A stretch of 64,000 nt of DNA from Candidatus Moraniibacteriota bacterium (GCA_049304095.1 JBAQNU010000004.1:8594-72593); one strand, 5' to 3'. Positions 14,944 to 47,495 are shown, counted from the first letter of the stretch. Numbers and translations are program-made. Notes: a model not told the origin generated them from the sequence alone.

Positions 14944-15120
14944 TAGGAGCTACGCATTTCCCCTCACAGCCATATTGACTAAAAAAATGACTCGAATGCT
15001 CTTTTTTCTTTTCAAAACTTTCCCTCATTCGACGGCATCCGGTGGAAAGTTTTGAAGAAAAAAGGCATTCTCAAACAGGATTTTTTTAGCCAATACGGCT
15101 GCTTCGGGCAAGTGCGTAAG
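14944..15120 (+). repeat. MITE-like structured intergenic repeat, copy 1
   Basis: About 175 bp. Outer imperfect inverted repeat cagccatattgactaaaaaaa / tttttttagccaatacggctg. Inner 13-bp hairpin ttcaaaactttcc-(17 nt)-ggaaagttttgaa. More than 90 percent identical to copies at 24988, 27165, 44568 and 47317. Confidence 0.9.
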
Positions 15121-15143
15121 ATACGTTATTATGTTAGATTATG

Positions 15144-16913
15144 TTATTGCATTTTTTCAAAATAGAATCCGGCGCCCAAATTTTGACTGTCAAACGCTTT
15201 GACTTCCGGCGAATAATAGGGCGTGCAGGGCAAGGGCAGGCTGCGACACTCATTATCATTTTTCGGTCGATAGACTGTGCTAATTTTGCCGTCTCTCGTC
15301 TTCATCTCTTTTTCATAAAACTGATTTGAATCGGTAAATGTGACATAGAAAACATTTTTAGGTTTTTTATTGATTCTTTCAATCGGACCCGCAATGATGA
15401 AAAGTTCGAAAGAAATAATCAGCACAAAGAAAATAACAAATCTAAGTGCATATTTATTCAGTACCCTATCTGCAATAGTAGCATAAATATCAACTAAAAA
15501 CAAACTGAAAATGGCGAGGCCGGAAGCAAAAAACATTATGAAAAACAAAAGGCTAAAGCGAATGTCTGGAGCGGAAAAAAACCAATATGCTAGATTCAAA
15601 ATCTGTACCAAGAACAACCAATAATACTTTTTTTGTTTTTTAAAGCTCAAAAAAAGATTAACCACCCAGACAATCAGCCCCGCAATAAACGGCATGGCGA
15701 CCAAATTTAAAAATAGGCGATCCGCCAAATTTCTTTTTAGCCAAGGCAAAAGCCAATAGAAAAGACCATTGTCCGCTGAGCTCATAAAATTTTCTCCTGG
15801 TAAGCGTGCCCAATAACGAATGGAATTATAGGCACCAAAAATTGCGCCTTCTGAGGCAGTCCAAGGAAAATTCGCGCGCAAAAAAGGCAAAGGAAAAAGC
15901 GGATAACCACTGGTTATTAAATTAGCGATAATGCTACCCAAAAAACCAAGAAATGGCAGAAAAAAAATCTTGCTTAAATTTTTCCAACTTACCAGTTTAT
16001 TCTTGATCAACAAATACAAAGAGAAAATTGCCACCATAAGCACGATTGCAGCAGCGTTTTGTTTCGACAGGTAGGCGGAAATGGAAAGCAAATTGATGGT
16101 AAAAAGAAATTCCAAAAGGGTACTTTTTTCATCAACCTCTCCACTCAAAAAATATTTCATTATTTCATTGATAATGATTGCGCCAAGAAACATCGGCAAA
16201 AGATCATAATATAGATTTGGAGCACTATTATAGGTGCCAAAATAATAAACAATGCTGGCCACAAGCAGTGGCACGACATAAGCAATCCGCCAAATTGTCA
16301 AACGCTTCTTCCCTTTTTCTGCAAGCATCAAAAAAACTTCCCAAATAAAATAGGCGCCAAAAGCAAAAAAGAATAGCCCTGGCATCACGAATGGGCTTTC
16401 ATTATCCCAAAGAGCATTATCGAACACAGCAGACAACTGCAAATAGCTTGAAAAACTTGCGAGACGAAAATGCAAATTAGCCAGTCCCGGCACCAACGGA
16501 TAGTGATTGAGCCAAGAAACGATGCCCATGTGATAGCCGGTCGTGTCCCCCTCTTTGGGAAATTTTTGTCCGCCAAGTGATGTAGATATGGTCAAAAGCA
16601 AAAGACTAATTACGAAAACAAGCAAAAATATCTGCTTGCGAGAAAAATCAATCGCCAAAAGCTTTGTTTTTTTTCTTGAAATAAAAAAAAGACTCAAAAG
16701 TCCAAAAAGCAAAACAAATAAAAGCACTGGTGTGTCAAATTTTCGAAAAAAAGACAAATAGCTAAGCGGAATGATTAAGGCGCTATAGCCCAAAAAAAAT
16801 AGCAGAACGGGATTTTCAACAACTCTTTTGTGCTTAAAAATTTTTCTGATTAGTTTTCCCCAACCAAAAAGCACGAGAAAAAACAAAATTATCGAACAAA
16901 AAATAAATAGCAT
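15144..16913 (-). CDS. polytopic membrane protein (589 aa), GT-C-like candidate
   Basis: More than 12 TM helices. Lies 4 nt downstream of a GtrB/GtrA fusion gene. Confidence 0.55.
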   Translation of the reverse strand: MLFIFCSIILFFLVLFGWGKLIRKIFKHKRVVENPVLLFFLGYSALIIPLSYLSFFRKFDTPVLLFVLLFGLLSLFFISRKKTKLLAIDFSRKQIFLLVFVISLLLLTISTSLGGQKFPKEGDTTGYHMGIVSWLNHYPLVPGLANLHFRLASFSSYLQLSAVFDNALWDNESPFVMPGLFFFAFGAYFIWEVFLMLAEKGKKRLTIWRIAYVVPLLVASIVYYFGTYNSAPNLYYDLLPMFLGAIIINEIMKYFLSGEVDEKSTLLEFLFTINLLSISAYLSKQNAAAIVLMVAIFSLYLLIKNKLVSWKNLSKIFFLPFLGFLGSIIANLITSGYPLFPLPFLRANFPWTASEGAIFGAYNSIRYWARLPGENFMSSADNGLFYWLLPWLKRNLADRLFLNLVAMPFIAGLIVWVVNLFLSFKKQKKYYWLFLVQILNLAYWFFSAPDIRFSLLFFIMFFASGLAIFSLFLVDIYATIADRVLNKYALRFVIFFVLIISFELFIIAGPIERINKKPKNVFYVTFTDSNQFYEKEMKTRDGKISTVYRPKNDNECRSLPLPCTPYYSPEVKAFDSQNLGAGFYFEKMQ

Positions 16914-16917
16914 TTTT

Positions 16918-18051
16918 TTAGTCCGCTTTGCGCTTATAAATTATCTCCTCCAATTTTTTCTTGAAAACCAATTTGTCATAACCGAAAAAATTAAGCACGA
17001 TGGCTAGGGCGACTCCGATGAGGGTGTTGGTCATATAGTCCACTCCGGACGACGCCAGGATAGGGAAAAGAATTAGTCTTGCTAGAAATGAAATTCCGGT
17101 GACAAGATGAAAATAGAAAAAAACTTTGAGAAAATTGCGCGTGGTTTCATATTTGTAGCGCCAAGTGATGAATGAGTGCAAAAATAGTCCCACCAGAACG
17201 CTCACTTCGATGCTTATAATATTAGCCACTTCCAAAAGACCACGCGTGTTGAAATTGCCATATTGCACTAATGCGTAGATGGCCAAAATTTGCGACAAGG
17301 CCACAAACACGCCATTGATGCCATATTTCACAAAATGGGCAAAGCCCGAAGTGTTATATTTAAAAATACACCAAAGAGCCCGCACACCGTCTTTCCAGCC
17401 AATATGCTTGCCTTCGTTATAGGTCCGGCCGTAATAGGAAATACCCACTTCATAGACCCGCACGTTTTTGGTGCGCGACAATTCCCCCACTTTGGCGGTG
17501 ATTTCCGGTTCAAAGCCAAACCGATTTTCTTCGATGGCAATTTGATCAAGCACGCTTTTGCGAAAAACCTTATAACAAGTTTCCATGTCAGTCAGATTCA
17601 AATCGGAAAAAACATTGGAAAGCAGTGTGAGAAATTTGTTCATCGTGGTGTGCCAGAAATAGAGAATGCGGTGCGATTGTCCGCCGATAAAACGCGAGCC
17701 AAAAACCACGTCAGCCTTTTCTTCCAAGATTGGCTTCAAAAGTTTGGGATATTCATTAGGGTCATATTCCAAATCAGCGTCTTGAATGATTACCAAGTCG
17801 CCAGTCGCTTTGCGAAATCCGGTGTTGAGCGCTCCGCCTTTGCCCTTGTTTTTGGCATGATAGAAAACGCGAATTTCCGGATCATTGATGTTTTTCAAAA
17901 TTTCACGCGTGCCATCCTTGGAACAGTCGTCCACCAAAATGAGCTCGCGCTCAGTGATTTTTTCCGGCAAAGTAACACTTTTGACAATTCCCACAATTTG
18001 GAGAATCGTCTTTTTTTCGTTGTAGATTGGGATGACGATGGATAGTTTCAT
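16918..18051 (-). CDS. GT2 polyprenyl-phosphate glycosyltransferase fused to a C-terminal GtrA-like membrane domain
   Basis: LSIVIPIYNE, LVDDCSKDGT and QDADLEYDP motifs, then four C-terminal TM helices (GtrA family pattern). Start placed at the internal MKLSIV. Confidence 0.8.
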   Translation of the reverse strand: MKLSIVIPIYNEKKTILQIVGIVKSVTLPEKITERELILVDDCSKDGTREILKNINDPEIRVFYHAKNKGKGGALNTGFRKATGDLVIIQDADLEYDPNEYPKLLKPILEEKADVVFGSRFIGGQSHRILYFWHTTMNKFLTLLSNVFSDLNLTDMETCYKVFRKSVLDQIAIEENRFGFEPEITAKVGELSRTKNVRVYEVGISYYGRTYNEGKHIGWKDGVRALWCIFKYNTSGFAHFVKYGINGVFVALSQILAIYALVQYGNFNTRGLLEVANIISIEVSVLVGLFLHSFITWRYKYETTRNFLKVFFYFHLVTGISFLARLILFPILASSGVDYMTNTLIGVALAIVLNFFGYDKLVFKKKLEEIIYKRKAD

Positions 18052-18070
18052 TTTTTGTATGGCGAAATGC

Positions 18071-18466
18071 TTAGAGATTTGCTTTTTCCTTGATTTTTCC
18101 GGCAATCAGATCAGCTATCTGCCAATACTGGACCAGTCTCGCATATAGCTCGTTGGCCATTTTTTCAGAATAGGTATGCACGGACAAGTTTCGATCATCG
18201 GTCATTGCCATACACTGCTCAATATTTTCCTCAGATAAATCTAAAATCACACGAATTTCCCGAAAGCAGGCCTTGGGAGAATTGCATTCAATTCCCTCAT
18301 ATTCCTTCAAATACATCTTCACCGTTTTCCAAAGCAATTCAAGGGAAAATTCATAGCGTTGAATTGTCGCATCACGATTGAGATCAGAAAATGGAGCATC
18401 CAATGCTTTTTTCCAAGCAATGAGTGCTTGCTCTAAATCAGAAAATTTTTCTTTTAGATAATCCAT
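18071..18466 (-). CDS. HEPN-domain nucleotidyltransferase substrate-binding protein (HI0074 family) toxin
   Basis: Typical HI0074-like sequence, 131 aa. Overlaps the partner MNT gene by 13 nt. Confidence 0.8.
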   Translation of the reverse strand: MDYLKEKFSDLEQALIAWKKALDAPFSDLNRDATIQRYEFSLELLWKTVKMYLKEYEGIECNSPKACFREIRVILDLSEENIEQCMAMTDDRNLSVHTYSEKMANELYARLVQYWQIADLIAGKIKEKANL

Positions 18467-18741
18467 ATTTTTGGTCCACCCATAACGCGCTCGCGAAATG
18501 GATCTTTAGTGTTATTGATATTAATTACATCGAATCTATAGGGCAAAGATGATTCGTCAAGGGCGTCTTTAATTTTGGAGATTGTCTTGTCTATTTCCTT
18601 TCTTTCACTGACAATCGCCAAGTCCACATCGTTGAATTTCGTGCCTTCCACGCTCGAGCCAAAAACAAAAACCCGCTCACCTTTTTCGAGTTGATGACTA
18701 AAAAGCTCTTTGATTTTGGCAATATATTTTTCCTCAAGCAT
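18454..18741 (-). CDS. minimal nucleotidyltransferase (MNT) antitoxin partner
   Basis: GSSVEGTKFNDVDLAIV, a polymerase-beta-type NTase motif (GS...DxD). Confidence 0.8.
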   Translation of the reverse strand: MLEEKYIAKIKELFSHQLEKGERVFVFGSSVEGTKFNDVDLAIVSERKEIDKTISKIKDALDESSLPYRFDVININNTKDPFRERVMGGPKIWII

Positions 18742-18794
18742 ATCCCTATCATAACCAATATTTCCGGTAAATGCAATAAAAGGCCACTATTCTC

Positions 18795-21305
18795 TCAATT
18801 TATTGGCAAATTTAGTGGTTTTTTCGAAAAATATATAGCAAATATTAGGATGATCAAGCTCAAAATCCCAAGCATCCTTCTAGTGTTTGATTTTGGTTCT
18901 GGCTTTTTATCACTACTACTTTCTTCTCCGGCTATTTGCTGCTGGGACTTGTTTTCTATTTGTCCGGCACTGAACGGATTTTCTTTGCTGGCAAGAAGTA
19001 GGTTATTTTCAACATTATCCTTATTGCTAAAACCCAATGAAGCCACTAAATTGGTTCCTAAATTTGTCTTTTTATTGTTATTTTTTTTATGATCAGAGTT
19101 TGAATCATCCGAATCATTAGAATCATCGTCTGAATCGCTAGTCTCTTCACCCAAAACACTTGTTTCGGCTTCAGTCTCCGTCACCTTCTCATCCGGATTA
19201 GTGACTTTGTCACCACTGATTTTTGCTTTTAGCGTTTCCGTGCTACCGACTGAAGCTGTGCCAATGAAAGTGGCAGTTGATTCTTTCGCGTCTCCCGAGC
19301 TGTCCTCAAAAATCTTCGTCGCTTCAATTTTATAATCCCCTGCTCCAGTGCCTTGAGTAATAATTTGATATTCCCCATCTTCTGGATTAGGAATGGAAAC
19401 AATTTCATTGTCCGTATTATAGCCGGTGTAATAGGCACCGTCGATTTGATTTTTAGTCGTGTTATGTTCAAAATCCTTTCCAACAATTTTTCCGCTAGGA
19501 GAAATAACTTGGACGTCGATGGGGGAAAAAATAAAGACCACAAATATATTATCAATAAAAGAGGCTGGCATTTCTTTGCTTGGAAGTTGCCCAGTTACAG
19601 CTTCAAAAATTTCATCGGCTCCTTTGGATGGAAGCTCTGTGTGTGCTAGCGCCAGTTCGATTTTCCGATCTTCAACAGCTCTCTCTCCGACTTCCAAGGG
19701 TAAGGTTAGTTGCGTCGATTCAAATGGAACAGTTCCGTCGCCATCGCCATAGCTCAATCCATGATCACCAGAAAGTGCGTCAAAATTTTCCGGCTTTCCG
19801 TGCGCCCAAAGAGAATTTTCGTCTATTGATGGCTTTCCTACTTTGATTTCACTAATTGTTTTGCTGTCATCCAGCTTACCAACAATATTGATAAATTCGA
19901 CGCTACTTAGCTTGTCCAAATTTTCAGGCAAGTTTAAATTTTCCAAAAAAGTATTTTTGGGATAATGACTATCATATTGACGCATCTCACCAGAATCAGC
20001 GCTCTTCAAATAATCATATGTCGGCAAAAGCTCCCTGACCGATTTCATTGGTAAATTATGCACATAATCAAAAATATCAACATAACCATTTTCTTGCGCC
20101 TCTTGTTTAAAAATTAATTTTGCAAACTCATTCAAGACACTTATCTTTGAAAAATTTACATAACCACCATCCCAAGTTAAATAATCTTCCGGCGCTCCAT
20201 TGTGTGGCGTGCCAACGGTAACTAGTTGGTCAATATCATTTTGATAATCAGCGGATTCGATATATTCACGCGCAAGCAATCCCCCCATCGAATGCGCTAC
20301 GAGATCAACTTTTGGCCAATTTTTATCCTCTCTTATCGCTTTTATCTTGGCTTGCAACAAATTGGCATTGTTCACATTACTATCGCGCCACTGATAGGGA
20401 AAAACAAATAGATCTTCGTTTTCCGTATAACCATTTTCTTCAAAGGTTTCCACTAAGTTATCATACATCTTGAAAATCGGATCTAGTTTCCATTCTCCGT
20501 TATTTGTCCATTGCCAAGAACCCAAGATTCCCGGGATAATAATCACGGGATCATGGAAATCTTCTTCTGTCAGCCAATCGGAAGCATCAACATCGCCATC
20601 CATTTTGTCATAATAACAACCACTTCCCTCATAGCATGTTTTTGGCGGTCCGTCGGCATCGCCCCACCAGTTATATTTGAAATTAACAGTTTTCGTGCCA
20701 TCAAAATTATTAAAAGCCACGTCCAACTGAGAGCTATTACTAAATTTTGAACGATTAACAATTACTTTTCCCGCACTGGCAGCGCTCGCATATATCGCGA
20801 CAACGTTATCATGGAAATTACAGCCCTGAGCGTCCAATGACCCACCATTTAAATGAATACCTCCTTGAAAATAGGCATTTGCCGTATTTAGAATGGAATT
20901 ATTTTGAATCATCCGAATGGACGCTCCGGCGCCACTGACATCCACATTTTTCATTATAACTTTTCCGCCAGTTTGAACTGTAATTGAATAATACCCTCGC
21001 GCATCAGCTGCTCTTCTCAGCTTAACGGGATTTTCGGACGTTCCGCCAATAACTATTTTCCCCTGAACATTTATATTGCTGGCACCATCAAAAGTTAGTG
21101 TTACGCCATTTCGAATAAACAGCGTCGCGCCCGCATTAATAGTTATACTTCTTGTGATCATTCTGTCAGTTAGCCATTCTTGGTCGGAAGCAATTATTTC
21201 GGAATCATCTGCTTGAGAATATTCAATCAGCGCTGAAAATGATATTGGAGTTAGCGTAAAAGCCAAAACAAGAAGCATTGCACTTGTTTTTTTGATTTTC
21301 GACAT
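18795..21305 (-). CDS. secreted right-handed beta-helix / alpha-beta-hydrolase lipase (GHSMGG) protein with acidic repeat linker and C-terminal TM anchor
   Basis: Signal peptide, then a pectate-lyase-like NxxG repeat region. Lipase nucleophile elbow VAHSMGGLLA, an Ig-like domain, a D/S-rich low-complexity stretch and a C-terminal TM helix. Confidence 0.75.
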   Translation of the reverse strand: MSKIKKTSAMLLVLAFTLTPISFSALIEYSQADDSEIIASDQEWLTDRMITRSITINAGATLFIRNGVTLTFDGASNINVQGKIVIGGTSENPVKLRRAADARGYYSITVQTGGKVIMKNVDVSGAGASIRMIQNNSILNTANAYFQGGIHLNGGSLDAQGCNFHDNVVAIYASAASAGKVIVNRSKFSNSSQLDVAFNNFDGTKTVNFKYNWWGDADGPPKTCYEGSGCYYDKMDGDVDASDWLTEEDFHDPVIIIPGILGSWQWTNNGEWKLDPIFKMYDNLVETFEENGYTENEDLFVFPYQWRDSNVNNANLLQAKIKAIREDKNWPKVDLVAHSMGGLLAREYIESADYQNDIDQLVTVGTPHNGAPEDYLTWDGGYVNFSKISVLNEFAKLIFKQEAQENGYVDIFDYVHNLPMKSVRELLPTYDYLKSADSGEMRQYDSHYPKNTFLENLNLPENLDKLSSVEFINIVGKLDDSKTISEIKVGKPSIDENSLWAHGKPENFDALSGDHGLSYGDGDGTVPFESTQLTLPLEVGERAVEDRKIELALAHTELPSKGADEIFEAVTGQLPSKEMPASFIDNIFVVFIFSPIDVQVISPSGKIVGKDFEHNTTKNQIDGAYYTGYNTDNEIVSIPNPEDGEYQIITQGTGAGDYKIEATKIFEDSSGDAKESTATFIGTASVGSTETLKAKISGDKVTNPDEKVTETEAETSVLGEETSDSDDDSNDSDDSNSDHKKNNNKKTNLGTNLVASLGFSNKDNVENNLLLASKENPFSAGQIENKSQQQIAGEESSSDKKPEPKSNTRRMLGILSLIILIFAIYFSKKPLNLPIN

Positions 21306-21310
21306 TGGTT

Positions 21311-21559: not shown

Positions 21560-21600
21560 ATATTTTCATTTTTTAACTTTCATTTAACCCCCTATAAATA

Positions 21601-21645
21601 TTATACCACAAAAACAATTTTTGCCTATTTTTGTTAATTTTTTGA
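21601..21645 (-). promoter_or_regulatory. extended -10 promoter module (TGgTATAAT), copy A
   Basis: Minus strand reads acaaaaataggcaaaaattgtttttgtggtataatat. Thirty-six of its bases recur at 23437-23480. Confidence 0.5.
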
Positions 21646-21977: not shown

Positions 21978-21991
21978 TTAAGCAGTACGAC

Positions 21992-23323
21992 TTATTTCTT
22001 AATGAAGTATCCTCCCGACTTAGAGCTTCCAATAAATTCTACAAAACCATCTTCCTTTAATTTCTTGATCCACCTTTCAATTGTTTTTTGCGGAGCAATT
22101 CCGGCGCTCATCATTTGGTTGGTTCTTTTGCCTGGATTATTGGCAATGAAGTTTTTCAATTTATTTGCTCCCTCATTTGCTCCCTCATTTGCTCCCTCAT
22201 TTGCTCCCTCATTTTGTTTCCTTTTCTCAAAAGTAATCACAAAAGCACCGACTTTTTCTGAGAACTCGGGCAGTTTATTGCCGTTTTTTTCACACTCTTC
22301 AATTATTCTTTGAAAACCTGTGCCCCAATTTTCAACTAGCTCGATTTGATGAAAAATTTCCACCAGCTTTTTGTTTCTGGGAATAGATCTGTTTTCTGTG
22401 AGAATGCTTTTTGTATTGATTTCTTTCGGCAGAAGTCCCGGGCTCCAAATTTCCAGCGAATTGTCAAAAATCCTAATTTGAATATTTCCCGAATCATTAT
22501 AGTCCCGATGCATGAGAGCATTGATAACAGCTTCTCGGAGCGCCAAAAGCGGATAGTCCCAAATTTCATCTCGTTTCGGCTTTCCCGTGATGACAAATTC
22601 CCTGTTAATATGCCTTTTGATGAAATCCATAATCTGTTCAACGGCCTCGATGATGTTGCCATTAAACTCTTTTTCGTCTAAAAATTTAACCACGCTCTGG
22701 CCTTTGAATCTCGCGGCTCTCACAGTGGCGTTATAGATTTCAGTATTATTTTTCACAAAACAAAGATAACCGGCATTAGTAACTTTATTTTTAGTTGCCA
22801 GTCCAGTTTTTTTCAAAAAATCAATTGCGGATGTTGTCTTGAGCTTATAATATTCCTTGTTTACTTTTTCAATCAGTTTGTCATCAAATTCAATTGTCTT
22901 GAGTTCTTTGTCTTGATACATTTTGTCGAAATCCGACAAAGCATATCTTTTGATCAGCTCCCGCACTTCCGTTTGGGACATTTTCTGATTGGTTTTGCCT
23001 ACTCTGATATAGGCCCTCTCAAAGGCAAAGACTGGCTTGTTGTCAGACTCGGAAACTTCAATCTCCACGATTTCACCAAGACCAAATGTTTTCACATTGA
23101 TCGATGGATATAGAATCGGATCGGTATGATTTTTTACTTTATTAGCAAAATCTTCGATTGTTTTTTTCCCTAGCTGAAGCTCGTTGGCTGTGCCATCATC
23201 TTTCATGCCAATAATAACCTTGCCACCTTTTTTGTTGGCAAAAGCGCAAAGACTAACAATTGCCTCTTTCCATTCGGAAAAAGAGCTCTTAAGTTCTAAT
23301 TTTTCAGATTCTTTTAGTTGCAT
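21992..23323 (-). CDS. AlbA_2 (Schlafen-like) + HATPase_c_4 + C-terminal wHTH putative transcriptional regulator/ATPase
   Basis: N-terminal LELKSSF...ANKKGGKVIIGMKDDG AlbA_2 signature. The central ATPase-like region is followed by a (NEGA)x4 repeat and a winged HTH. Confidence 0.8.
   Translation of the reverse strand: MQLKESEKLELKSSFSEWKEAIVSLCAFANKKGGKVIIGMKDDGTANELQLGKKTIEDFANKVKNHTDPILYPSINVKTFGLGEIVEIEVSESDNKPVFAFERAYIRVGKTNQKMSQTEVRELIKRYALSDFDKMYQDKELKTIEFDDKLIEKVNKEYYKLKTTSAIDFLKKTGLATKNKVTNAGYLCFVKNNTEIYNATVRAARFKGQSVVKFLDEKEFNGNIIEAVEQIMDFIKRHINREFVITGKPKRDEIWDYPLLALREAVINALMHRDYNDSGNIQIRIFDNSLEIWSPGLLPKEINTKSILTENRSIPRNKKLVEIFHQIELVENWGTGFQRIIEECEKNGNKLPEFSEKVGAFVITFEKRKQNEGANEGANEGANEGANKLKNFIANNPGKRTNQMMSAGIAPQKTIERWIKKLKEDGFVEFIGSSKSGGYFIKK
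22163..22212. repeat. perfect 12-bp tandem repeat x4 (tttgctccctca) inside CDS, encoding (NEGA)4
   Basis: Read directly from the sequence. In-frame, in the linker between the ATPase and HTH domains. Confidence 0.9.
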
Positions 23324-23379
23324 ATTTTTTTATTTAGGCTGAAAAATAAGCTATTTTTCTTTATTCCTATGGGCTAATT

Positions 23380-23415: not shown

Positions 23416-23436
23416 AATTTGTAAACTTGTTTTTTA

Positions 23437-23480
23437 TATTATACCACAAAAACATTTTTTGCCTATTTTTGTCCACTTGT
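23437..23480 (-). promoter_or_regulatory. extended -10 promoter module (TGgTATAAT), copy B, driving 21992..23323
   Basis: Thirty-six-base match to 21601-21645. On the plus strand a second TATAAT lies 6 nt before the ATG of 23495, which suggests a leaderless start. Confidence 0.5.
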
Positions 23481-23494
23481 AGTATAATTGACTC

Positions 23495-24982
23495 ATGATG
23501 AGATTGCGAAAAATACTTACTTTTTGTCAAAAGCCCGGCTTTTTGCTTGGTTTAATTTTAGCGGCCTTTTTTTTGAAAGGTCTGCTTTTAGTGTCGGCCT
23601 TTCCTATTTTTGGCGGACAAGACGAATCGCGGCACTATAACACCATTCAATATTTAGCTGAGCCGAAAGAAAAGACATGGCCCATCACAGTGCAGACCAA
23701 AGAGCAAGCTACGGCGCAAAAGGAAGCGCAGGACAAAGATGACCTCGCCACCTATCGTTATTCGCAGGAGATTCAAAATACCGCCATAGCCACCGACACG
23801 GACGCTCTGCGCGGAGATATTTTCAACACGATTGCTTTTTCCGAAAATTCCCAAGGCCTCAACGAAAACGAAATCAATGCGCATAGTTGGAAGGCCTACA
23901 ATTTCGTCTCCCCAGCGGACATGGTGAGTGGAACTGTGTTCTATCACAAACTCGGCACGCTTATTGAAAAAGCTTTTGCTGACCAAAGTATTTTAGTGCG
24001 TTTCTATTTGATCCGTATTTTTTCGGTCTTCTTGGGGATGCTAGTGATTCTTTTAGCATACCTCACTGCCAAAAAAATGGGCTTTTCGGCGCGCCACAGC
24101 CTCCTTCTCACTGCCATTATTTCTTTCCAACCCAAATTTTCTTTCTACTATTCCAACATCAACTATGACGTACTACTCATTTTAATGTTCGCGCTTTTCA
24201 CCTATGCCGGAATTTTGACCCTCAAAGATGGTCCGAACTGGAAAAATATGGCGCTCCTGGTTTTTTCCATTTTTGTAGCGAGAGAAACAAAAGCGACTGG
24301 AACAATCCTCTTGGTTGCTTTTATTTTTCTGCTGGCGTATTTATTCTATAAAAAATTCGAGGCTCGCGTGAAAAGCCAAGTTTCTCCCTATTCAATTTTA
24401 GCCATTACACTTTCTGTCGTGATCGCCTTTGCACTCATAACGCTTTCGCTTGATCTCACCAATTTGGGGAAAGTCATCACCGCTACTGGCGCTTATTTAG
24501 GAAAAAGTCTCACCTTGGGAAGATTGGCCCTTTCAGCGCGCACCTATTGGGGCACGCTCAGCTGGACCAACAGCTTCTTTATGGATTATATTATCAACTT
24601 CATCTGGCTCATTGAATTTTTCGCAATCATTGGACTGGGATTTTTCTTTTTTGGCAAAACTGAAAAGCCTAAATTTTTGCCAGAAAAAAAATATCTCACA
24701 TTTCTAGTTGGAATGATTGTTGCCCTGCAATTGGGCATTCGTGTGGCTGATTGGTCAATTTTTCAACAGCTAGGAAAACTGGAGATTGGCGCGCCGGGAC
24801 GCTATTTCTTGCCCAACCTAACCGCGCACATTATTTTAGTTTTTTCCGGTCTCGGGATGCTTTTCACACGCTTTAAAAAAGAAACTTATTTCGACAATTC
24901 ACTCCTCCTCGGCGCAATTTTGATGCTAGCTTTTTCACTCTATTTGATTTTTGATGTGATTATTTTTAGATTTTATTTATAA
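23495..24982 (+). CDS. GT-C-like polytopic membrane protein (DUF2142-like)
   Basis: First TM is followed by GGQDESRHY (DE motif). More than 10 TM helices. Confidence 0.55.
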   Translation: MMRLRKILTFCQKPGFLLGLILAAFFLKGLLLVSAFPIFGGQDESRHYNTIQYLAEPKEKTWPITVQTKEQATAQKEAQDKDDLATYRYSQEIQNTAIATDTDALRGDIFNTIAFSENSQGLNENEINAHSWKAYNFVSPADMVSGTVFYHKLGTLIEKAFADQSILVRFYLIRIFSVFLGMLVILLAYLTAKKMGFSARHSLLLTAIISFQPKFSFYYSNINYDVLLILMFALFTYAGILTLKDGPNWKNMALLVFSIFVARETKATGTILLVAFIFLLAYLFYKKFEARVKSQVSPYSILAITLSVVIAFALITLSLDLTNLGKVITATGAYLGKSLTLGRLALSARTYWGTLSWTNSFFMDYIINFIWLIEFFAIIGLGFFFFGKTEKPKFLPEKKYLTFLVGMIVALQLGIRVADWSIFQQLGKLEIGAPGRYFLPNLTAHIILVFSGLGMLFTRFKKETYFDNSLLLGAILMLAFSLYLIFDVIIFRFYL

Positions 24983-24987
24983 CAAGA

Positions 24988-25152
24988 CTCATGCATTTAC
25001 ACTAGCCGGTATTTTTCTAAAAAATAACTCGAACGCTCTTTTTTCTTTTCAAAACTTTCCCTCATTCGACGGCATCCGGTGGAAAGTTTTGAAGAAAAAA
25101 GGCATTCTCAGACAAGATTTTTTAGAAAAATACCGGCTGTGAAATGAAATAC
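24988..25152 (+). repeat. MITE-like structured intergenic repeat, copy 2
   Basis: Same core as copy 1. The outer arms differ but remain perfectly complementary (agccggtatttttctaaaaaa / ttttttagaaaaataccggct). Confidence 0.9.
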
Positions 25153-25169
25153 TTAATCGCTATATAATT

Positions 25170-25805
25170 ATGCAACTAAATTCTACCAAAAAAATATTCT
25201 TATCTATCTTGGCATTTTTTGTTTTGCTTATTTTCGCCAGATTTTTCACGCTATTGTCTTTTCCTGACTCACGCGTTGCCTTGCAAAAAGGCGCGCTCGC
25301 TAAGTTGGAACCGAAAAGTTCGCTCACCCAAGAATTCACAGCCAACCACGCGGGACTTGCCAAGATTGAAGTGCTACTGCGCACACCCGGCATTAAAAGT
25401 GAAAATGGCGACCGAGTGGAAGCCAAGTTGATGAGTGAAAATTGCGACCAAACGCTGCGCGCCGGCGAATTGGAAAAAGCCTTTCTTGCTTCGGAAAATC
25501 TCTATGAGTTTTCTTTTGCTCGCCTCCCCGATTCACTAGGAAAGGATTTTTGTCTCAAGTTGACTTTTCTACCTCAAAAAGACAGTGCCAAAAACATTCA
25601 AATTTTTACTATGAGTGAAGCCGAAAACCAGCCACTTTCCGTGCGCCCGGTTTATGTTAATCAATATTTTTGGCAAGATTTTGCCGAATTAGGCCAGCGC
25701 ATGTCTCAGTATAAGCCGTGGTTTTTGAAAGATATATTTTTGTTTTTGCTTGTTTTTGGCTTTTTATTTGTTTCGATTTTTATCCTTCTTTTGTTTATTT
25801 TATAA
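25170..25805 (+). CDS. hypothetical bitopic envelope protein (N- and C-terminal TM)
   Basis: 211 aa. An N-terminal anchor and a C-terminal TM flank a roughly 150-aa hydrophilic domain. Confidence 0.5.
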   Translation: MQLNSTKKIFLSILAFFVLLIFARFFTLLSFPDSRVALQKGALAKLEPKSSLTQEFTANHAGLAKIEVLLRTPGIKSENGDRVEAKLMSENCDQTLRAGELEKAFLASENLYEFSFARLPDSLGKDFCLKLTFLPQKDSAKNIQIFTMSEAENQPLSVRPVYVNQYFWQDFAELGQRMSQYKPWFLKDIFLFLLVFGFLFVSIFILLLFIL

Positions 25806-25823
25806 CCATAGTATAATTAAAAT

Positions 25824-27158
25824 ATGCTGGATTTTACTAAAAACACTACTCTTGAGCCAACTTGGCAAAAGCGTTATGAACGCTTGCGCGCGTTGCTCTA
25901 TGCACTGGCATTTGCCTGGGCGCTAGCTTTGGCCTATGGCCTCATTTTTCCAACGCTTGCTTTTGACTATTTTTTCAATCCCGATGCTTTTTCCAAGAAA
26001 AATACCATCCTTGATCCGCGTGACCAAAATAATGCGCCGTTGGAAAATGGCAAGCTAACCAAAGACAAAAAATTACTGATGGATACAGCTCTTTTGGGCA
26101 ATTTTTCTGACGCAACGCTTAGCATTACGGCGGGAAATGATGTTGATCTTTCTGGTTCAACTCTTTTGGCACACAAATCCTACCGCGCTTTTCTCTATCC
26201 CGTCGGTGATCCGGTCGGTTTTCGCGAAGGCAGTTTGCTTTTTTCGGCAGGTGATTTCTATCTCGTCTCCAATGGAGAAAGACGCCAATTCGCCTCACAA
26301 GATTTGGCCACTGAACTTGGCTTCACTCCAGACATGTTTTTGATGGTTGATGCTAATGAGTTGGATTATAACAAACAGGGTGAAAAAATAACCCAAACGA
26401 ATTATCCGGACGGAACAACTTTTGTGATTGAAGATACATATTATCAACTGAAAAATAATTTGCTCTATCCTTTCGTGAGCGCAGGCGCTTTTCTTTCTCG
26501 CTATGAAGCGCGAACGGCACTCAAAAAGGACCGGGACTTTTTGAGCAAATTTGAAGTGTCGCAGGAGCAACTTGGTTTGGCAGACGGAACACTAGCAGCG
26601 ATTGGCATTTCTGTCTATATCCTAAGCGCAGGCAAAAGCTACCCCGTTGCGAGTCCTCAAGTTTTTGAAGAGTTAGGCTATGATTGGAACGCGCTTTACG
26701 TTGCCAATTCGGAAGAGGTGGGAATCTATAAAAAACAAAAACAGTTTGGAGAAGGCTCCACGCATCCTGATGGCACTATTTTTCAAGACGAAAAGATTGA
26801 AACTTATTATTTAATCGAGAATGGAAAAAAGCGTCCACTACTTGGAACGCATCTAATTGCTTCCTATGCGACAAAAATCAAACCTGTAGTTGCAGACAGC
26901 ACTAGTCTCAACCAAACCGCTTCATGCTCTCTAAAAAAAGCCGCTTTTTGGCAAAAAAATACCTACACTTGTCGGATGCCACTCGCTCAAGTCGTCGCTC
27001 AAAAAGGCAATGATTATCAATTCCTGGGGCAATTCAATGCGACTGTGGCTATTGATCAAATTCATGCGAAGTTCCACACTGCCCTCAATTTCCAAAATGC
27101 CCGCAACTCACTCTCGCGCATAAAAAATTCCGCTATCACTTTGAATGTACCTAAATAA
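25824..27158 (+). CDS. hypothetical membrane-anchored protein with four ~45-aa internal repeats
   Basis: Repeats of pattern Y(Y/L)LxxNGxxRxxxSxxxxxxLGF, for example YLVSNGERRQFASQDLATELGF, YILSAGKSYPVASPQVFEELGY and YYLIENGKKRPLLGTHLIASYA. Confidence 0.5.
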   Translation: MLDFTKNTTLEPTWQKRYERLRALLYALAFAWALALAYGLIFPTLAFDYFFNPDAFSKKNTILDPRDQNNAPLENGKLTKDKKLLMDTALLGNFSDATLSITAGNDVDLSGSTLLAHKSYRAFLYPVGDPVGFREGSLLFSAGDFYLVSNGERRQFASQDLATELGFTPDMFLMVDANELDYNKQGEKITQTNYPDGTTFVIEDTYYQLKNNLLYPFVSAGAFLSRYEARTALKKDRDFLSKFEVSQEQLGLADGTLAAIGISVYILSAGKSYPVASPQVFEELGYDWNALYVANSEEVGIYKKQKQFGEGSTHPDGTIFQDEKIETYYLIENGKKRPLLGTHLIASYATKIKPVVADSTSLNQTASCSLKKAAFWQKNTYTCRMPLAQVVAQKGNDYQFLGQFNATVAIDQIHAKFHTALNFQNARNSLSRIKNSAITLNVPK

Positions 27159-27164
27159 ATAGAA

Positions 27165-27335
27165 TCGGTGCTTTTTTCCTCGCAGCCGCATTGACTAAAA
27201 AAATAACTCGAACGCTCTTTTTTCTTTTCAAAACTTTCCCTCCCTCGACGGCATCCGGTGGAAAGTTTTGAAGAAAAAAGGCATTCTCAAACAAGATTTT
27301 TTTAGCCAATACGGCTGACTCGGGAAAATGCGTAA
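27165..27335 (+). repeat. MITE-like structured intergenic repeat, copy 3
   Basis: Same element. The inner-loop variant is ctccctcgacgg. Confidence 0.9.
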
Positions 27336-27356
27336 TTTATAAAATTTACCTAAATT

Positions 27357-27764
27357 ATGAAAAAGATTTTCACTTTTAATTTCAATCGCAAGCAAGCGCT
27401 ACTGCTTGTCTATAAACTACTGCATGATCTCTCTTTTTTGCTATTCGTCATTTTCGCCGGACTGCTTTTGGCAGAGGCGGTGATACCTGGTCTTTTGTCC
27501 TTTCATTTGAGTATTCCCCTATTTGTTTTTTTGATGCTTTTCTCACTTGGCATAATCGGACAAATTGGCCGTAAATTTGATTTGCACTATCCACTTGTTT
27601 CCGTGCGCAAAAATAAATTTATGCCTTTTTTCGTGCTCATCATTATCCTCCTTTTAGGCGGTTCAATGCTAAAATTTTCTCTTTGGGAGAATTTGCTAAT
27701 CCTTTCGGGAACACTCTATCTACTTTTTCTTTTCTACCGCATCATGCTTAGAGCGCAACGCTGA
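27357..27764 (+). CDS. small polytopic membrane protein
   Basis: 135 aa with 4 hydrophobic helices. Converges on the pseudo-HtrA gene. Confidence 0.4.
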   Translation: MKKIFTFNFNRKQALLLVYKLLHDLSFLLFVIFAGLLLAEAVIPGLLSFHLSIPLFVFLMLFSLGIIGQIGRKFDLHYPLVSVRKNKFMPFFVLIIILLLGGSMLKFSLWENLLILSGTLYLLFLFYRIMLRAQR

Positions 27765-29667: not shown

Positions 29668-29668
29668 A

Positions 29669-42685: not shown

Positions 42686-42776
42686 AAAATTTTTCTACCC
42701 TGTCTACCGACAGACAGGCGAATTAGATACTAACAATGAACAGTTTTATTATATCACCTTTTATTAGAATAAAAAA

Positions 42777-43940
42777 CTAATTAGCCAGCAATTTGAGAGT
42801 TTTTTTAGCCGTTTTTTCCCAAGAAAATTGTTTGGCTCTTTCCAGCCCCACTGCGATTAATTTTTCACGTAACGCGCGATTTTCCAAAATTTGCTCCATC
42901 GCGCGAGCAATTTCTCCCGGCTGATCGGGATCAATAAGCATCCCCGCCTCAGCGCAAATTTCCGGCAATGATGAATTGTTTGAAGTGATTACCGGCACGC
43001 CACATTGCATTGCTTCTAGCGGTGGAAAACCAAAACCTTCAAAAAAAGATGGGTAGACAAATAGCGTTGCCAGATTATAGACATAGACTTTGTCCTCATT
43101 GGAAATAAAGCCTGGTAAAATAATCTTTTCTTTAAATTTAGAATTGGCAATTTCACGAAAAATCTCCCCGTCAAGCCAACCATTCGAACCGGCAATCACC
43201 AGCTTATATTTCAAAAGTTCCAAATTATTGCTTTTTTGGGCAAACTCTTGCAACTGCGAGTAGGCACGAACGAGTCCGCTGATATTTTTTCTTGGCTCAA
43301 TTGTGCCAAGATAAAGAATAAATTTAAATGGCAAATTATATTTTTCCTTAACTCTAATTAAATTTTCATCATTGCGATCAATGAAACGAAAATTAGCCGC
43401 AACGGCGCTATGAATCCAGACTGCTTTTTGTTCCTCTAGTCCATAGAAATTGACAACATCGCGCCAAGAAGATTGCGACACGGAGATTATTCGGTCCGCC
43501 CGTTCACACAGTTTTTTAGAATTAATAAATATATGCCAAAAACGCCGCTTCCAAGAAAAATACTCGGGATAACGTTCAAAAGATAGGTCGTGAATGGTGG
43601 CGAGCATTTTCACTTGCGCACTTACTGCGCCAAAAATAATATTAGGCAAGAAGACCACGTCCGCTCCCCCAACCAGTTTGTCAATTTTGGGCCAACTAAA
43701 ATACCAAAAAGAAAAATTCAAAAGTTTATTCGGCAAGCGAATTTTTTTCACCGTCACATTGGAATATTTTTCAAACATCCCAAAATCAAACGCCGGCTTT
43801 TTCCAGGAGTTAAAAAATAGCACATACTCGTTAGTGTGATCAATCTCAAAAATGTGCAAAAGCAATTCTTGAGTATATTCCTCCACGCCCGTTCTTCTTC
43901 CCTCCATTAGACACCGAACATCAATGCAGATTCTTGCCAT
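42777..43940 (-). CDS. GT4 glycosyltransferase
   Basis: EGFGFPPLEAMQCGVPVI C-terminal GT-B motif. Confidence 0.85.
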   Translation of the reverse strand: MARICIDVRCLMEGRRTGVEEYTQELLLHIFEIDHTNEYVLFFNSWKKPAFDFGMFEKYSNVTVKKIRLPNKLLNFSFWYFSWPKIDKLVGGADVVFLPNIIFGAVSAQVKMLATIHDLSFERYPEYFSWKRRFWHIFINSKKLCERADRIISVSQSSWRDVVNFYGLEEQKAVWIHSAVAANFRFIDRNDENLIRVKEKYNLPFKFILYLGTIEPRKNISGLVRAYSQLQEFAQKSNNLELLKYKLVIAGSNGWLDGEIFREIANSKFKEKIILPGFISNEDKVYVYNLATLFVYPSFFEGFGFPPLEAMQCGVPVITSNNSSLPEICAEAGMLIDPDQPGEIARAMEQILENRALREKLIAVGLERAKQFSWEKTAKKTLKLLAN

Positions 43941-43951
43941 AGACTTTTAGC

Positions 43952-44554
43952 TCACTCGAGATAATGCTTAAAAAGAATTCCAAAAAAAGCCAGGAAAATA
44001 GCAGAGCAAAAAATAACTACCACTGCGACAGGATTAACCTCTCTCACCCTAGTTACTGAATCACCAGAAACAATTTCAAACCACGTCGCCTCTTTTTGAT
44101 CTTGGTTAAGTTTTGCAATATTTTGAGAAATCACCTTGGAAACTGAACTAGCAAGACTTTTGGCCAAAGCTTCACTGGGAACAGAAAAACTGACCGCCAC
44201 TAGCTGTGCTGATCTTTTCTCTGCCACAATACTGCTCATCAATTTTTTCAGACTATAGTCAGAAACATCGATTCCGGAATTGACATAGATATCTTCTTCT
44301 GTTCTTGGGCTTTTGAGCCATTCCACAATTGTTTCAGCGAATTTTTCATCCGCTTGCAAACGATAGAAATCATCATATTCATAGTTATCCGAAACTTGCG
44401 CGCCCGAACGGGTAATATTCAATGTGAGCGAGGTGTCAAAAGAAACAGGACGAAAAAACACATAGACCAATCCAGTAACGACAATCAATCCAAAAATTGC
44501 AAGAAATAATTTGAACTGTTTTTTGATGATTAGAAAATATTCTTTCAGTTCCAT
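43952..44554 (-). CDS. Wzz-like polysaccharide co-polymerase / chain-length determinant (bitopic)
   Basis: N-terminal TM, periplasmic domain and C-terminal TM, in an EPS operon. Start placed at MELKEY because the track ATG lies inside repeat copy 4. Confidence 0.45.
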   Translation of the reverse strand: MELKEYFLIIKKQFKLFLAIFGLIVVTGLVYVFFRPVSFDTSLTLNITRSGAQVSDNYEYDDFYRLQADEKFAETIVEWLKSPRTEEDIYVNSGIDVSDYSLKKLMSSIVAEKRSAQLVAVSFSVPSEALAKSLASSVSKVISQNIAKLNQDQKEATWFEIVSGDSVTRVREVNPVAVVVIFCSAIFLAFFGILFKHYLE

Positions 44555-44567
44555 AGTTTTTTTATTA

Positions 44568-44746
44568 TAGGAGTTACGCATTTCACCTCACAGCCATATT
44601 GACTAAAAAAATAACTCGAACGCTCTTTTTTCTTTTCAAAACTTTCCCTCACTCGACGGCATCCAATGGAAAGTTTTGAAGAAAAAAGGCATTCTCAAAC
44701 AGGATTTTTTTAGCCAATACGGCTGATTCGGATAAATGCGTAAGTC
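44568..44746 (+). repeat. MITE-like structured intergenic repeat, copy 4
   Basis: Same element. Sits intra-operonic between a GT4 gene and the Wzz-like gene. Confidence 0.9.
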
Positions 44747-44754
44747 GTGTGCTA

Positions 44755-45879
44755 CTAATTAATTTGGCATGCTCGCGCTTCCAGATGTTTATTTAATTCT
44801 TCTTCAATATATTTTTTAACTTTCTCTTTGAAAAAAATCTTATCAAATTTTCGCACACTTTCCCTGATATAATCTGGGTCATAATCGGCACTGCGGAATT
44901 TCTTGACCGCAGAAATTATATCCTCGGCAGTTTGTTTATCGAAAAAAATACCAGATTTCCCCTCTTCCATATGTTCCAAGATGTCCCCGCCTCGATAAGC
45001 AATAAGTGGCCGACCTGAGGCCATTGCTTCAATCGCCACGATACCAAAATCCTCCTCCTGGGGAAAAACAAAAGCTTGACAATTGGCATAATACTGCGCC
45101 AATTTTTCTTCTGGAACACGTCCTAAAAATTCGATATTTGGCTTGGCCATTTTTTTAAGCCTATTCAGTTCTGGTCCGCGACCGATAATTTTGAGTGGCA
45201 ATCCCAATTGATTAAAAGCTTGGATGGCGATATCAAAACGCTTATAGGCAATCACACGCCCAACCATTAAAAAATAATTCTGACTCTTGTCTCCGCTGGC
45301 AATGTGAAAATTGTCGATATTCACCGGCGGATGGATAACCAAACTGTCTTTTCGATAATATTTTTGGATTCTTCTGGCGACAAATTTGGAATTAGCAATT
45401 ATCTTGTCCACTCTTTCCGCACTAATCTTATCCCAGATGCGGATATAGTTCATGAAAAAAGGCACCAGCTTTTTGACAAAATGTGGAAAATAGAAATCAC
45501 TAGTATATTTTTGACAATCATCCCAAGCATAACGCATTGGGGTGTGAATATAGCTGACGTGCAGTGTTTCCGGTCCGGTGATGATCCCCTTGGCATAGCT
45601 TGAAGAGTCAGAAAGCACAATGTCATAGGCGGAAAAATCAAACTGCTCAATCGCCGCCGGCATCAATTGCGGAAAAATACGATGACGATTTTTGACAAAT
45701 GGTAAGCGTTGCAAAAAAGACGTGCGGATATCTTTGCCAGCAAAAACTCCGTGCATTAATTTTTCGTCGTAGACTAATGTATAGATGGGGGCATCAGGGA
45801 AAAGTTCGCAAAAACATTCCAACACTCTTTCCGCGCCACCATATTGAACCAGATAATCATGTACGAGAGCAATTTTCAT
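44755..45879 (-). CDS. GT4 glycosyltransferase
   Basis: MKIALVHDYLVQYGGAERV (GT4 N-terminus) and a C-terminal GT-B motif. Confidence 0.85.
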   Translation of the reverse strand: MKIALVHDYLVQYGGAERVLECFCELFPDAPIYTLVYDEKLMHGVFAGKDIRTSFLQRLPFVKNRHRIFPQLMPAAIEQFDFSAYDIVLSDSSSYAKGIITGPETLHVSYIHTPMRYAWDDCQKYTSDFYFPHFVKKLVPFFMNYIRIWDKISAERVDKIIANSKFVARRIQKYYRKDSLVIHPPVNIDNFHIASGDKSQNYFLMVGRVIAYKRFDIAIQAFNQLGLPLKIIGRGPELNRLKKMAKPNIEFLGRVPEEKLAQYYANCQAFVFPQEEDFGIVAIEAMASGRPLIAYRGGDILEHMEEGKSGIFFDKQTAEDIISAVKKFRSADYDPDYIRESVRKFDKIFFKEKVKKYIEEELNKHLEARACQIN

Positions 45880-45880
45880 A

Positions 45881-47293
45881 CTAATTTCTTCTTTTATGGA
45901 ATAACACGCCAATGGTTTTGAGGCAAATAATCACATCCAGCATAAGCGACCAATTCTCAATGTAATAGAGATCCAATTTATACTCATCTTCAAAATCCAA
46001 ATCCGATCGCCCGGAAACCTGCGCCATTCCGGACACGCCGGGTTTGATGGTAAGCAGTCTCCTGTGATAGTCCATATATTTTTCAATTTCTCGCTCTTGA
46101 TGCGGCCGCGGACCGATGAGACTCATCGAACCGAAAAGCACGTTGAACAATTGTGGCAGTTCATCAATAGAATATCTTTCAATGAATGTTCCCACGCGAG
46201 TTTTTCGTGGATCATTTTTAATTTTATAGAGCGGACCGCGACGGACGCTTTGTTTTTCAATCAGTTCATGCTCAAACTGCAAAGCTTCTTTCAGCTTTGG
46301 ATTTTCCTTGGAAATACAAAATTCATTTTTGAAATAGCGGAATTTGTAGACAAAAAATTTCTTTCCATCTGCTCCAATGCGTTCATTTTTATAGATAATC
46401 GGCCCCTCGCTATCCAGCCTCACTGCAATGGCGGTTGCTAGAAGAATGGGTGAAGTCAAAATAATTCCACAAACAGAAAAAAACAAGTCAAAAATTCTTT
46501 TGGCAATCCGGCCCCAGCCGTCTAGTGGCGTATTTTTAATTTCAATCAAAGGCTCGCCGTGAAACACGCCGATCTCAAATTTTGAGGTTTGCAACCCAGT
46601 GGGAATATATTTATAGACCACGTTGTGAATCGCACAATAGTCAATCAATTTTTCCTGTTCATCATCGGTAATAGATGATTCGCACAAAATTATCTCATCA
46701 ATCCCCCGCTCTTCTTTGATTTTCTTGATCACTTTGAGATGCGCCGTGTCAATCTGATCAATTATTTTATAACCCAAGTTTTTATTTCTATCAATTGTGT
46801 GAGCAATAATATCCAACTTGGCATTTTTGCCAATCAGCAGCACCCGATGAACACCAATGCCCCGGTTACGCAAAAACCATTTTTGCACCATCTGCAAGAT
46901 ATATCTGGCAATGACAACATAGGCCACCGCCAAAAACCAGGCGGCGAGAATTATGAAGCGAGAAGAAAACCACTCTCTTTTGAGAAAGATTGCAACAATA
47001 ATAATAACCAGGCCAATGGAAGTTGCACCAAAGACTTTGAGCATTTCTTTCCAAAATTTTCGCGTAACTCGATTATCATAGAGCCCTTCAATCGCATAAA
47101 TAATCAGAAATAACGGGGTAATGCTCAAAACTATTTTGACGTATTGTTGCAAGGGAAAGGAATATAGTTTCGGTTGAAGCGCAACAATACTGGGAACATT
47201 GCGAACCAAAAAAGCCGTGAGGGCCGCAAGCACAATCATTGCAAAATCAACAGGAACTTGCACGGCACTGAATAATAATTCCGATTTTTTCAT
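45881..47293 (-). CDS. undecaprenyl-phosphate sugar phosphotransferase (WbaP/WcaJ-like bacterial sugar transferase)
   Basis: N-terminal TM helices, then a C-terminal catalytic domain containing [21 protein letters not shown]. Confidence 0.9.
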
Positions 47294-47316
47294 TAGTTTA
47301 TTTTTAATACTAATAT

Positions 47317-47495
47317 GACTTACACATTTTCTCGAATCAGCCGTATTGGCTAAAAAAATCCTGTTTGAGCATGCCTTTTTTCTTCAAAACTTTCCATTGG
47401 ATGCCGTCGAATGAGGGAAAGTTTTGAAAAGAAAAAAGAGCGTTCGAGTTATTTTTTTAGTCAATATGGTTGTGAGGGGAAATGTGTAACTCCTA
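47317..47495 (-). repeat. MITE-like structured intergenic repeat, copy 5 (inverted orientation)
   Basis: Reverse complement of the consensus. Lies 16 nt from the 3' end of rnpB. Confidence 0.9.

Follow-up and report, generated by a model that had tools for sequence, protein, structure and literature searches.

Bacterial MITEs (miniature inverted-repeat transposable elements) are defined by small size, AT-richness, TA termini, terminal inverted repeats (TIRs) and target-site duplications (TSDs), together with co-transcription with neighbouring genes and transcripts that form long hairpins (PMC2229807; PMC3184786). Among them, bcr1 of the Bacillus cereus group is an interspersed, transcribed repeat of about 155 bp that is bordered by 5-bp direct repeats and occupies positions not conserved between close strains (PMC3184786; PMC6542083), and its long double-stranded fold is preserved by compensatory changes (PMC3184786). 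ERIC lies at transcribed intergenic sites, is co-transcribed with its neighbours and affects mRNA in an orientation-dependent manner, and the Correia/NEMIS element of Neisseria is a MITE likewise co-transcribed with the genes beside it and gives an RNA hairpin that RNase III cuts (PMC2229807). The subject here is a palindromic intergenic repeat present in five copies in a 64,000-nucleotide stretch of DNA (hereafter the window) from Candidatus Moraniibacteriota bacterium (GCA_049304095.1, JBAQNU010000004.1:8594-72593), where it makes up about 1.4% of the sequence. The window also corresponds to positions 8594-72593 of contig JBAQRM010000004.1 in GCA_049295935.1, and the valyl-tRNA synthetase (ValRS) that it encodes has 100% identity to a protein from a Candidatus Moraniibacteriota metagenome-assembled genome. 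The repeat is very probably a MITE, a new family of a known kind, that has recently spread between the genes of this Moranbacteria member of the candidate phyla radiation (CPR).

Small size, TIRs, a TSD of fixed length and insertion polymorphism are all displayed by the element, which belongs to none of the bcr1, ERIC and Correia families. Its nearest analogue is bcr1, with which it shares a similar size, 5-bp duplications, unconserved positions and compensatory changes in the arms. However, bcr1 inserts at a fixed TTTAT (PMC6542083), whereas the 5-mers duplicated by the present element are diverse, the two occur in different phyla, and bcr1 is set apart by description. ERIC/IRU of Enterobacteriaceae is also imperfectly palindromic and comparable in size, has TA termini, TIRs and TSDs and lies at transcribed intergenic sites, although it is 127 bp long and unrelated in sequence, and the orientation effect of the present element is a statistical bias only. 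A highly conserved central inverted repeat has been described in ERIC. Correia/NEMIS has a TA duplication, well-conserved TIRs of 24-26 bp and an IHF site, in contrast to the 5-bp TSD of the present element, which is least conserved at its termini. Tn3-derived inverted-repeat miniature elements (TIMEs) are similarly non-autonomous and generate a 5-bp target duplication; Tn3-family ends are, however, ∼38 bp long and start with GGGG, whereas the ends of the present element start with TAGGAG. The Chunjie MITE of Geobacter uraniireducens may be a further analogue.

The standard form of the element is 182 bp long with the termini TAGGAGTTACGC...GCGTAAGTCATA, and the whole of it constitutes a single long imperfect palindrome (TAGGAGTTACGCATTT...AAATGCGTAAGTCATA) which starts with outer arms and an A7/T7 helix and continues inward through an asymmetric internal loop to a central stem of the 26-bp class with a 17-nt loop. 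The preliminary description of this DNA, made from the sequence alone, had assigned the element TIRs of ∼38 bp; inverted repeats are indeed present, although the limit of ∼38 bp falls away given that the entire element is palindromic. The element ends in TA and its TIRs are imperfect, TAGGAGTTACGC agreeing with the reverse complement of the other end (TATGACTTACGC) at 10 of 12 positions, and the arms are symmetric at 76% over about 45 nt. All five copies listed in that description are real and intergenic and lie where it had placed them, with ends that could be refined using the TSDs, and a profile search of the 64-kb window yielded no sixth. Each of the five contains the conserved inner hairpin with its 17-nt loop (TTCAAAACTTTCC-17 nt-GGAAAGTTTTGAA), as had been described. 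The core 16-mer TTCAAAACTTTCCCTC has 10 matches in the window at up to three mismatches, forming five palindromic pairs, where 2.3 matches are expected and none of 100 shuffled sequences reaches 10. Mean column identity among the five copies is 82% when flanks are included, and pairwise identity within the element is 92-95%. Counting those found elsewhere, the 182- or 202-bp element is known from 21 copies and one remnant and is non-coding, there being no conserved open reading frame (ORF); the only ORFs with a start inside it run on into clpP and a GT2 gene, probably by chance. A small ORF within the element was considered and rejected, as changes in the loop would be non-synonymous and the start context is not conserved.

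Evidence for mobility comes from the TSDs. Among 17 independent insertions in which both ends are available, the flanking 5-mers are identical in six and match at four or more positions in 11 (p = 1.8e-9), compared with 0.7% and 10%, respectively, in cross-paired controls, and the signal is confined to an offset of 0 and a length of exactly 5 bp. The duplicated sequences are AT-rich and variable (TTATT, TATAA, AAGTT, AATCT, AAACT, ATAAA and others). Additional evidence is provided by contigs retrieved through their ValRS homologues, three from a sister species (92-94% nucleotide identity, one of them from metagenome Ga0172379) and five from more distant relatives (77-79%); the element is absent from all eight. 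In L047, whose flanks are near-identical to those of copy 5, and in L049, the empty site reads GATTTAGC directly followed by ATTAAAAAT (in extended form, GATTTAGC followed by ATTAAAAATAAAC), and the filled site in the window reads GATTTAGC, the 182-bp element, TTAGT and then ATTAAAAAT (ATTAAAAATAAAC), so that the filled site differs from the clean empty one by the element and a 5-bp duplication. Copy 4 is also missing in relatives (L046-L051), but the junction differs there and no clean empty site can be recognized. The TSDs and the filled/empty pair therefore indicate an element that inserts as a transposon does and was active once two species had split that have an average nucleotide identity (ANI) of ∼92%, and the earlier label "MITE-like" is borne out by exact 5-bp TSDs, TIRs, a clean empty site and presence or absence between relatives. 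Copies 1 and 2 are common to the window and the sister species and copies 4 and 5 are not found in the latter; copies 1 and 2 and the site occupied in contig L032 predate the split, and copies 4 and 5 are either younger or were lost.

Within the genome, the element occupies minimal AT-rich spacers at the stop/start junctions of co-directional genes. Between the upstream stop codon and the left end there are 0-21 nt, the downstream start codon follows the right end after 5-20 nt, and removal of the element with one duplication restores a compact junction, such as TATAA-TT-ATG for copy 2. Because of this placement the element is presumably co-transcribed with its neighbours and folds into a long RNA hairpin. 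In its 182-bp form the element is non-coding and palindromic with TA-ended imperfect TIRs, and the 202-bp subfamily has a 20-nt GC-rich hairpin in addition. It is presumably mobilized in trans by a transposase whose gene lies elsewhere and which would make a 5-bp staggered cut at AT-rich targets; the insertions that survive sit almost exclusively in the few AT-rich bases between co-directional stop and start codons, and the family was still active once the two sister species had separated. As had been noted from the sequence, no transposase is apparent in the window: Pfam and NCBIfam scans of its ORFs detected no transposase domain, several ORFs having no match of any kind.

That the repeat is of another kind, namely an integron attC site, a REP/RAYT element or a palindromic element derived from IS200/IS605, is extremely improbable. 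It is a structured intergenic palindrome whose strands fold differently, and a unit of two genes lies between copies 2 and 3, as such a reading would allow. IS200/IS605 and REP elements, however, make no duplication, and those related to IS200/IS605 would be expected at a fixed tetra- or pentanucleotide; here the flanking 5-mers are exactly duplicated and variable with no fixed target motif, which answers negatively the comparison with IS200/IS605 proposed at the outset, and neither RAYT nor TnpA/TnpB is encoded nearby. An attC site was likewise rejected, since copies are dispersed among housekeeping neighbours (ValRS, RNase P, clpP), no integrase is found near them, and copies 1, 2 and 5 each have a TSD of their own. 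The perfect TSD of copy 2 similarly rules against copies 2 and 3 being the ends of a composite transposon.

The preliminary description had favoured selection on RNA structure, with the element functioning as an antisense or intra-operonic structured RNA on its better-folding strand, where A·C mismatches of the opposite strand would be tolerated as G·U pairs. The underlying asymmetry was confirmed using RNAfold on both strands: the complement of the alignment orientation is the more stable in 19 of 19 full copies (mean -79.3 vs -64.3 kcal/mol), by 6-27 kcal/mol per copy and with z-scores of -8 to -12. Moreover, copies 1 and 4 do have glycan genes of the minus strand on both sides, copy 1 being 5' of a GT2 gene (PF00535) and copy 4 of a Wzz-like gene (a weak call at 25.2 bits, just below the cut-off of 25.5); each is antisense to both of its neighbours, and the transcript of the flanking genes would carry the fold-competent strand. 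The claim that all arm mismatches are A/C on one strand is correct for three positions (29, 35, and 54), which arm-against-arm alignment finds in nearly all copies (copy 2 is without two of them), but not otherwise, as the same strand has 5-9 other mismatches and at most three G·T pairs in every copy. The asymmetry in folding stems from these three mismatches, which were inherited from the founder sequence, and three events in the same direction are not significant (p∼0.25). Private transitions in the stems create G·U pairs on either strand about equally (in sense-oriented copies, ∼9 on the transcribed strand vs ∼12 on the other). The better-folding strand would be present in mRNA in only three of 18 insertions (copy 1, copy 4 and L032), a significant bias in the opposite direction, and the TSDs and empty sites point to spread as DNA. 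At gathering thresholds, an Rfam scan returned RNase P alone and no family for the element, and the best matches in a permissive scan, Phe_leader (25.8 bits, threshold 55) and mir-616 (25.6 bits, threshold 100), are generic hairpin matches.

The compensatory change reported for copy 2 is also real, its arms (GCCGGTATTTTTCTAAAAAA / TTTTTTAGAAAAATACCGGC) differing from those of other copies yet pairing perfectly. RNAalifold predicts 47 pairs, nine of which have pair-preserving changes on both sides, as selection on an RNA would produce; in the remaining 38 there is no two-sided change, and most never vary. All nine, however, derive from two lineages, one comprising copy 2 and its orthologue in L029 and the other L042, in which an arm module (GGTATTTTTCT/AGAAAAATACC) replaces the usual ATATTGACT/AGCCAATAC. 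The swapped arms are perfect palindromes and include a switch from CCGG to TTGG/CCAA. Mirrored multi-base changes of this type are explained equally well by arm-to-arm templated repair of a quasi-palindrome or by a requirement for a DNA hairpin, and since they can thus arise at the DNA level they do not discriminate between constraint on RNA and on DNA. Taken with the three inherited mismatches, the even distribution of transitions and the low number of insertions in the required orientation, this makes selection on the RNA structure of the better-folding strand very improbable, and that part of the earlier interpretation is not upheld.

Orientation relative to the flanking genes is significantly biased, with 15 sense and three antisense among 18 independent insertions (binomial p = 0.0075). 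In the rarer, antisense orientation, a hairpin of -43 kcal/mol abuts a U7 run with a spacer of 0 nt, whereas 10 unpaired nt separate the two in the common orientation; because of this direct contact, the rarer orientation is predicted to be the more terminator-like and more polar within operons. Under the MITE interpretation, insertions that give the more stable, terminator-like mRNA hairpin appear to be under-represented, the likeliest reason being that they would be more polar or harmful in operons. It is doubtful that the bias instead arises at insertion, through replication-fork- or strand-directed targeting or an asymmetric target preference, with no selection on RNA. The two ends of the element are non-identical, and by GC skew 14 of 18 insertions have the TAGGAG end on the strand richer in G, putatively the leading strand, a relation nearly as predictive as gene direction. 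Against this, gene orientation itself drives the GC skew of short contigs, copies 2 and 3 track gene direction rather than skew, and transposons with TIRs and TSDs usually enter in both orientations. The TAGGAG motif was also considered as a ribosome-binding site and rejected, because the genome is without Shine-Dalgarno usage (a Shine-Dalgarno-like motif precedes just 2 of 47 gene starts checked, leaders being A/T-rich); the motif is, moreover, directed into the element.

Conservation within the element is markedly uneven. Differences from the consensus occupy 25 of 1729 cells (1.4%) in the core stems vs 218 of 1387 (15.7%) in the arms and termini, and two orthologous pairs display three differences over 182 core positions against 12 over 144 arm positions (Fisher p = 0.006), their flanking genes having diverged by 8-11%. 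Copies with badly decayed termini (copy 3 and L036b) retain perfect cores. These patterns, the 15:3 sense bias and the orientation-dependent mRNA effects known for ERIC (PMC2229807) could be accommodated if the element were an exapted MITE, with the ∼110-nt central hairpin kept by purifying selection for a host role in the sense orientation, either ERIC-like mRNA processing, stability or insulation, or as a protein-binding DNA site. This, including purifying selection on the core, is considered unlikely. The relative with ∼92% ANI does without copies 4 and 5, and one copy, reduced to an 82-nt remnant, has lost the whole core. Core conservation is, furthermore, inflated by the way in which copies outside the window were ascertained, namely by requiring 22 core bases to match exactly, although the remaining 69 core positions are just as invariant and the window copies were found independently of that match. 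Finally, a gradient of conservation from core to edge is expected from gene conversion, because conversion tracts need homology on both sides, and this too would freeze the centre and free the edges. The apical loop (e.g. window 44651-44667) has five hypervariable positions (A/C/T, C/T, A/G and AA/AG/GG) that occur in many combinations among copies, and at four of the loop positions copy 1 and its orthologue in L038 differ, each toward variants typical of its own genome. Such variation is consistent with gene conversion or with recurrent mutation where the loop is exposed. A related proposal, under which the element would be more than a decaying MITE, also appears improbable: the ∼110-nt central hairpin would be actively maintained after insertion, and the outermost ∼35 nt at either end could vary as long as they stay complementary. 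If it held, mobilization would read the hairpin or core instead of the terminal sequence, which would be unusual in combination with a fixed 5-bp duplication; alternatively, the core would have been recruited as an orientation-dependent intercistronic module for processing, termination or insulation in a CPR bacterium.

Several of these observations weigh against the interpretation of the element as a recently mobile MITE. In three or four insertions (copies 3 and 4, L040 and L033a) the duplications are poor, the flanking 5-mers matching at two of five positions for copy 3 and three of five for copy 4. In the 64-kb window, in 18.5 kb of additional flanks and in the collected and viral contigs, neither an autonomous element nor a transposase bordered by matching ends was detected; Pfam and NCBIfam scans of the genes called in the flanks likewise gave no transposase. 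The termini are the most variable part of the element and the centre the most conserved, whereas TIR-dependent transposition of a simple kind, with neutral decay afterwards, would leave the reverse. The orientation bias toward the weaker hairpin is one of two patterns that the MITE interpretation leaves unexplained, and it is not separable from a bias in replication strand (14:4 by GC skew); simple consensus scans for intrinsic terminators and sigma-70 promoters found nothing inside the elements, neither strand being recognized as a terminator.

Beyond the window, 16 further copies were found, 15 in metagenome Ga0172379, which holds the sister species (∼92% ANI), and one on the groundwater contig L020, answering the earlier call for a wider search and showing that the family extends past the five original copies. 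The 21 copies represent 19 independent insertions, to which the 82-nt remnant may be added. In the genome scan, which covered one genome per species by exact match to the palindromic core, only one of 23 matches proved to be a true copy (94% identical, in L020), the other 22 being unrelated terminator-like hairpins; the metagenome copies were likewise found by core match. Two metagenome contigs are orthologous to parts of the window, L038 (89% identity) carrying the orthologue of copy 1 and L029 (92% identity) that of copy 2, with an identical core. Five copies form a 202-bp subfamily, observed solely in the sister species in Ga0172379 and absent from the window, whose right arm contains a further GC-rich hairpin of 20 nt (CCTGCCTACCGGCAGGCAGG). 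The 82-nt remnant lies in the source genome outside the window (L058; JBAQRM010000004.1:1607-1688) and has as its orthologue in L032 a full copy of the 202-bp type; an internal deletion has joined its arms at A-runs and removed the entire core. This remnant excepted, no diverged copies were detected by an nhmmer profile search of the collected contigs of relatives, nor was the element matched by blastn in phage and plasmid collections or by core, arm and inner motifs in viral contigs.

ORFs starting within the element (MKKKGIPCLPAGRSN...) run in frame into clpP in L028 (713-1402, +) and into a GT2 gene in L039 (1093-1971, -); these are probably chance read-throughs in the 202-bp subfamily, by which gene callers can be misled. 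L020 (JBAZYB010000045.1) has a GC content of 40% and compact, Patescibacteria-like genes, yet is binned in a metagenome-assembled genome (MAG) named 'Hyphomicrobium sp.', and is probably mis-binned.

The MITE interpretation implies that a non-autonomous element has recently transposed in a reduced genome of the CPR/Patescibacteria; the literature searched contained no account of MITEs from CPR bacteria. Insertions into operon junctions, including those of glycan-synthesis loci and one a short way downstream of the gene for RNase P RNA, could alter polarity and help strains to diverge, and the invariant core, variable ends and sense bias offer a concrete case for studying how MITEs evolve after insertion. 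The element also breaks metagenome assemblies, as can be seen from several contigs that stop in or at it, including L029, which terminates exactly at the start of copy 3, and the repeat has probably helped the mis-binning of the 40%-GC contig into the 'Hyphomicrobium' MAG.

Positions of the element, its target-site duplications and the genes flanking its copies in the window, with copies of the 202-bp type and the remnant on other contigs
Feature	Sequence	Position	Strand	Remarks
Copy 1	window	14944-15125	+	182 bp; boundaries refined from TSDs
Copy 1 left TSD	window	14939-14943		TTATT, same as right TSD
Copy 1 right TSD	window	15126-15130		TTATT
LIC_10190-family membrane protein gene	window	15144-16913	-	flanks copy 1
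GT2 gene	window	14005-14937	-	flanks copy 1; ATG 6 nt from element end
Copy 2	window	24983-25162	+	180 bp; variant with swapped, perfectly pairing arm modules; sense
Copy 2 left TSD	window	24978-24982		TATAA; includes stop codon of upstream gene
Copy 2 right TSD	window	25163-25167		TATAA; downstream ATG 2 nt further
PMT-like gene	window	23495-24982	+	flanks copy 2
Hypothetical gene	window	25170-25805	+	flanks copy 2
Copy 3	window	27160-27341	+	182 bp; left terminus decayed, core intact; sense
Hypothetical gene	window	25824-27158	+	flanks copy 3
Hypothetical gene	window	27357-27764	+	flanks copy 3
Copy 4	window	44568-44749	+	182 bp
GT4/GT1 gene	window	44755-45912	-	flanks copy 4
Wzz-like gene	window	43952-44554	-	flanks copy 4
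Copy 5	window	47314-47495	-	182 bp; sense
Copy 5 upstream TSD	window	47496-47500	-	TTAGC
Copy 5 downstream TSD	window	47309-47313	-	TTAGT; 4/5 match
RNase P RNA gene	window	47511-47857	-	class A; copy 5 lies 15 nt downstream
Sugar-transferase gene	window	45881-47293	-	copy 5 lies 20 nt upstream
202-bp-type copy	L028	605-806
202-bp-type copy	L032
202-bp-type copy	L036	~1574-1775
202-bp-type copy	L039	1878-2079
202-bp-type copy	L040	1536-1737
82-nt remnant	L058	1607-1688	-	core deleted

The window encodes glycosyltransferases, flippases, the Wzz-like protein, tRNA synthetases and SecA/SecDF in addition to RNase P RNA, and many of its genes overlap or stand 0-20 nt apart. The RNase P RNA next to copy 5 reaches no more than 134 bits, the threshold being 100. 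In the interval between ValRS and RNase P, the sister-species contigs have an extra ∼300 bp that includes a called 76-aa ORF and is not found in the window. A 246-aa ORF (53221-53961, -) without a Pfam or NCBIfam match is located between pheS (53982-55013) and pheT (50880-53237), overlapping the start of the latter; in the sister-species contig L046 pheS is directly followed by pheT, which makes this ORF, with a local GC content of 0.345, a lineage-specific inserted gene. A 37-nt direct repeat (21598-21634 and 23436-23472, 97% identical) brackets a Schlafen/AlbA_2 + HATPase_c_4 gene (21992-23323, -) and may represent the boundaries of an inserted defence-type gene. To the left of the window on the same contig (L058, 4869-8199), small accessory genes (23S_rRNA_IVP, PDDEXK_3 and AbiEii with a partner gene) form a cluster surrounded by glycosyltransferase genes.

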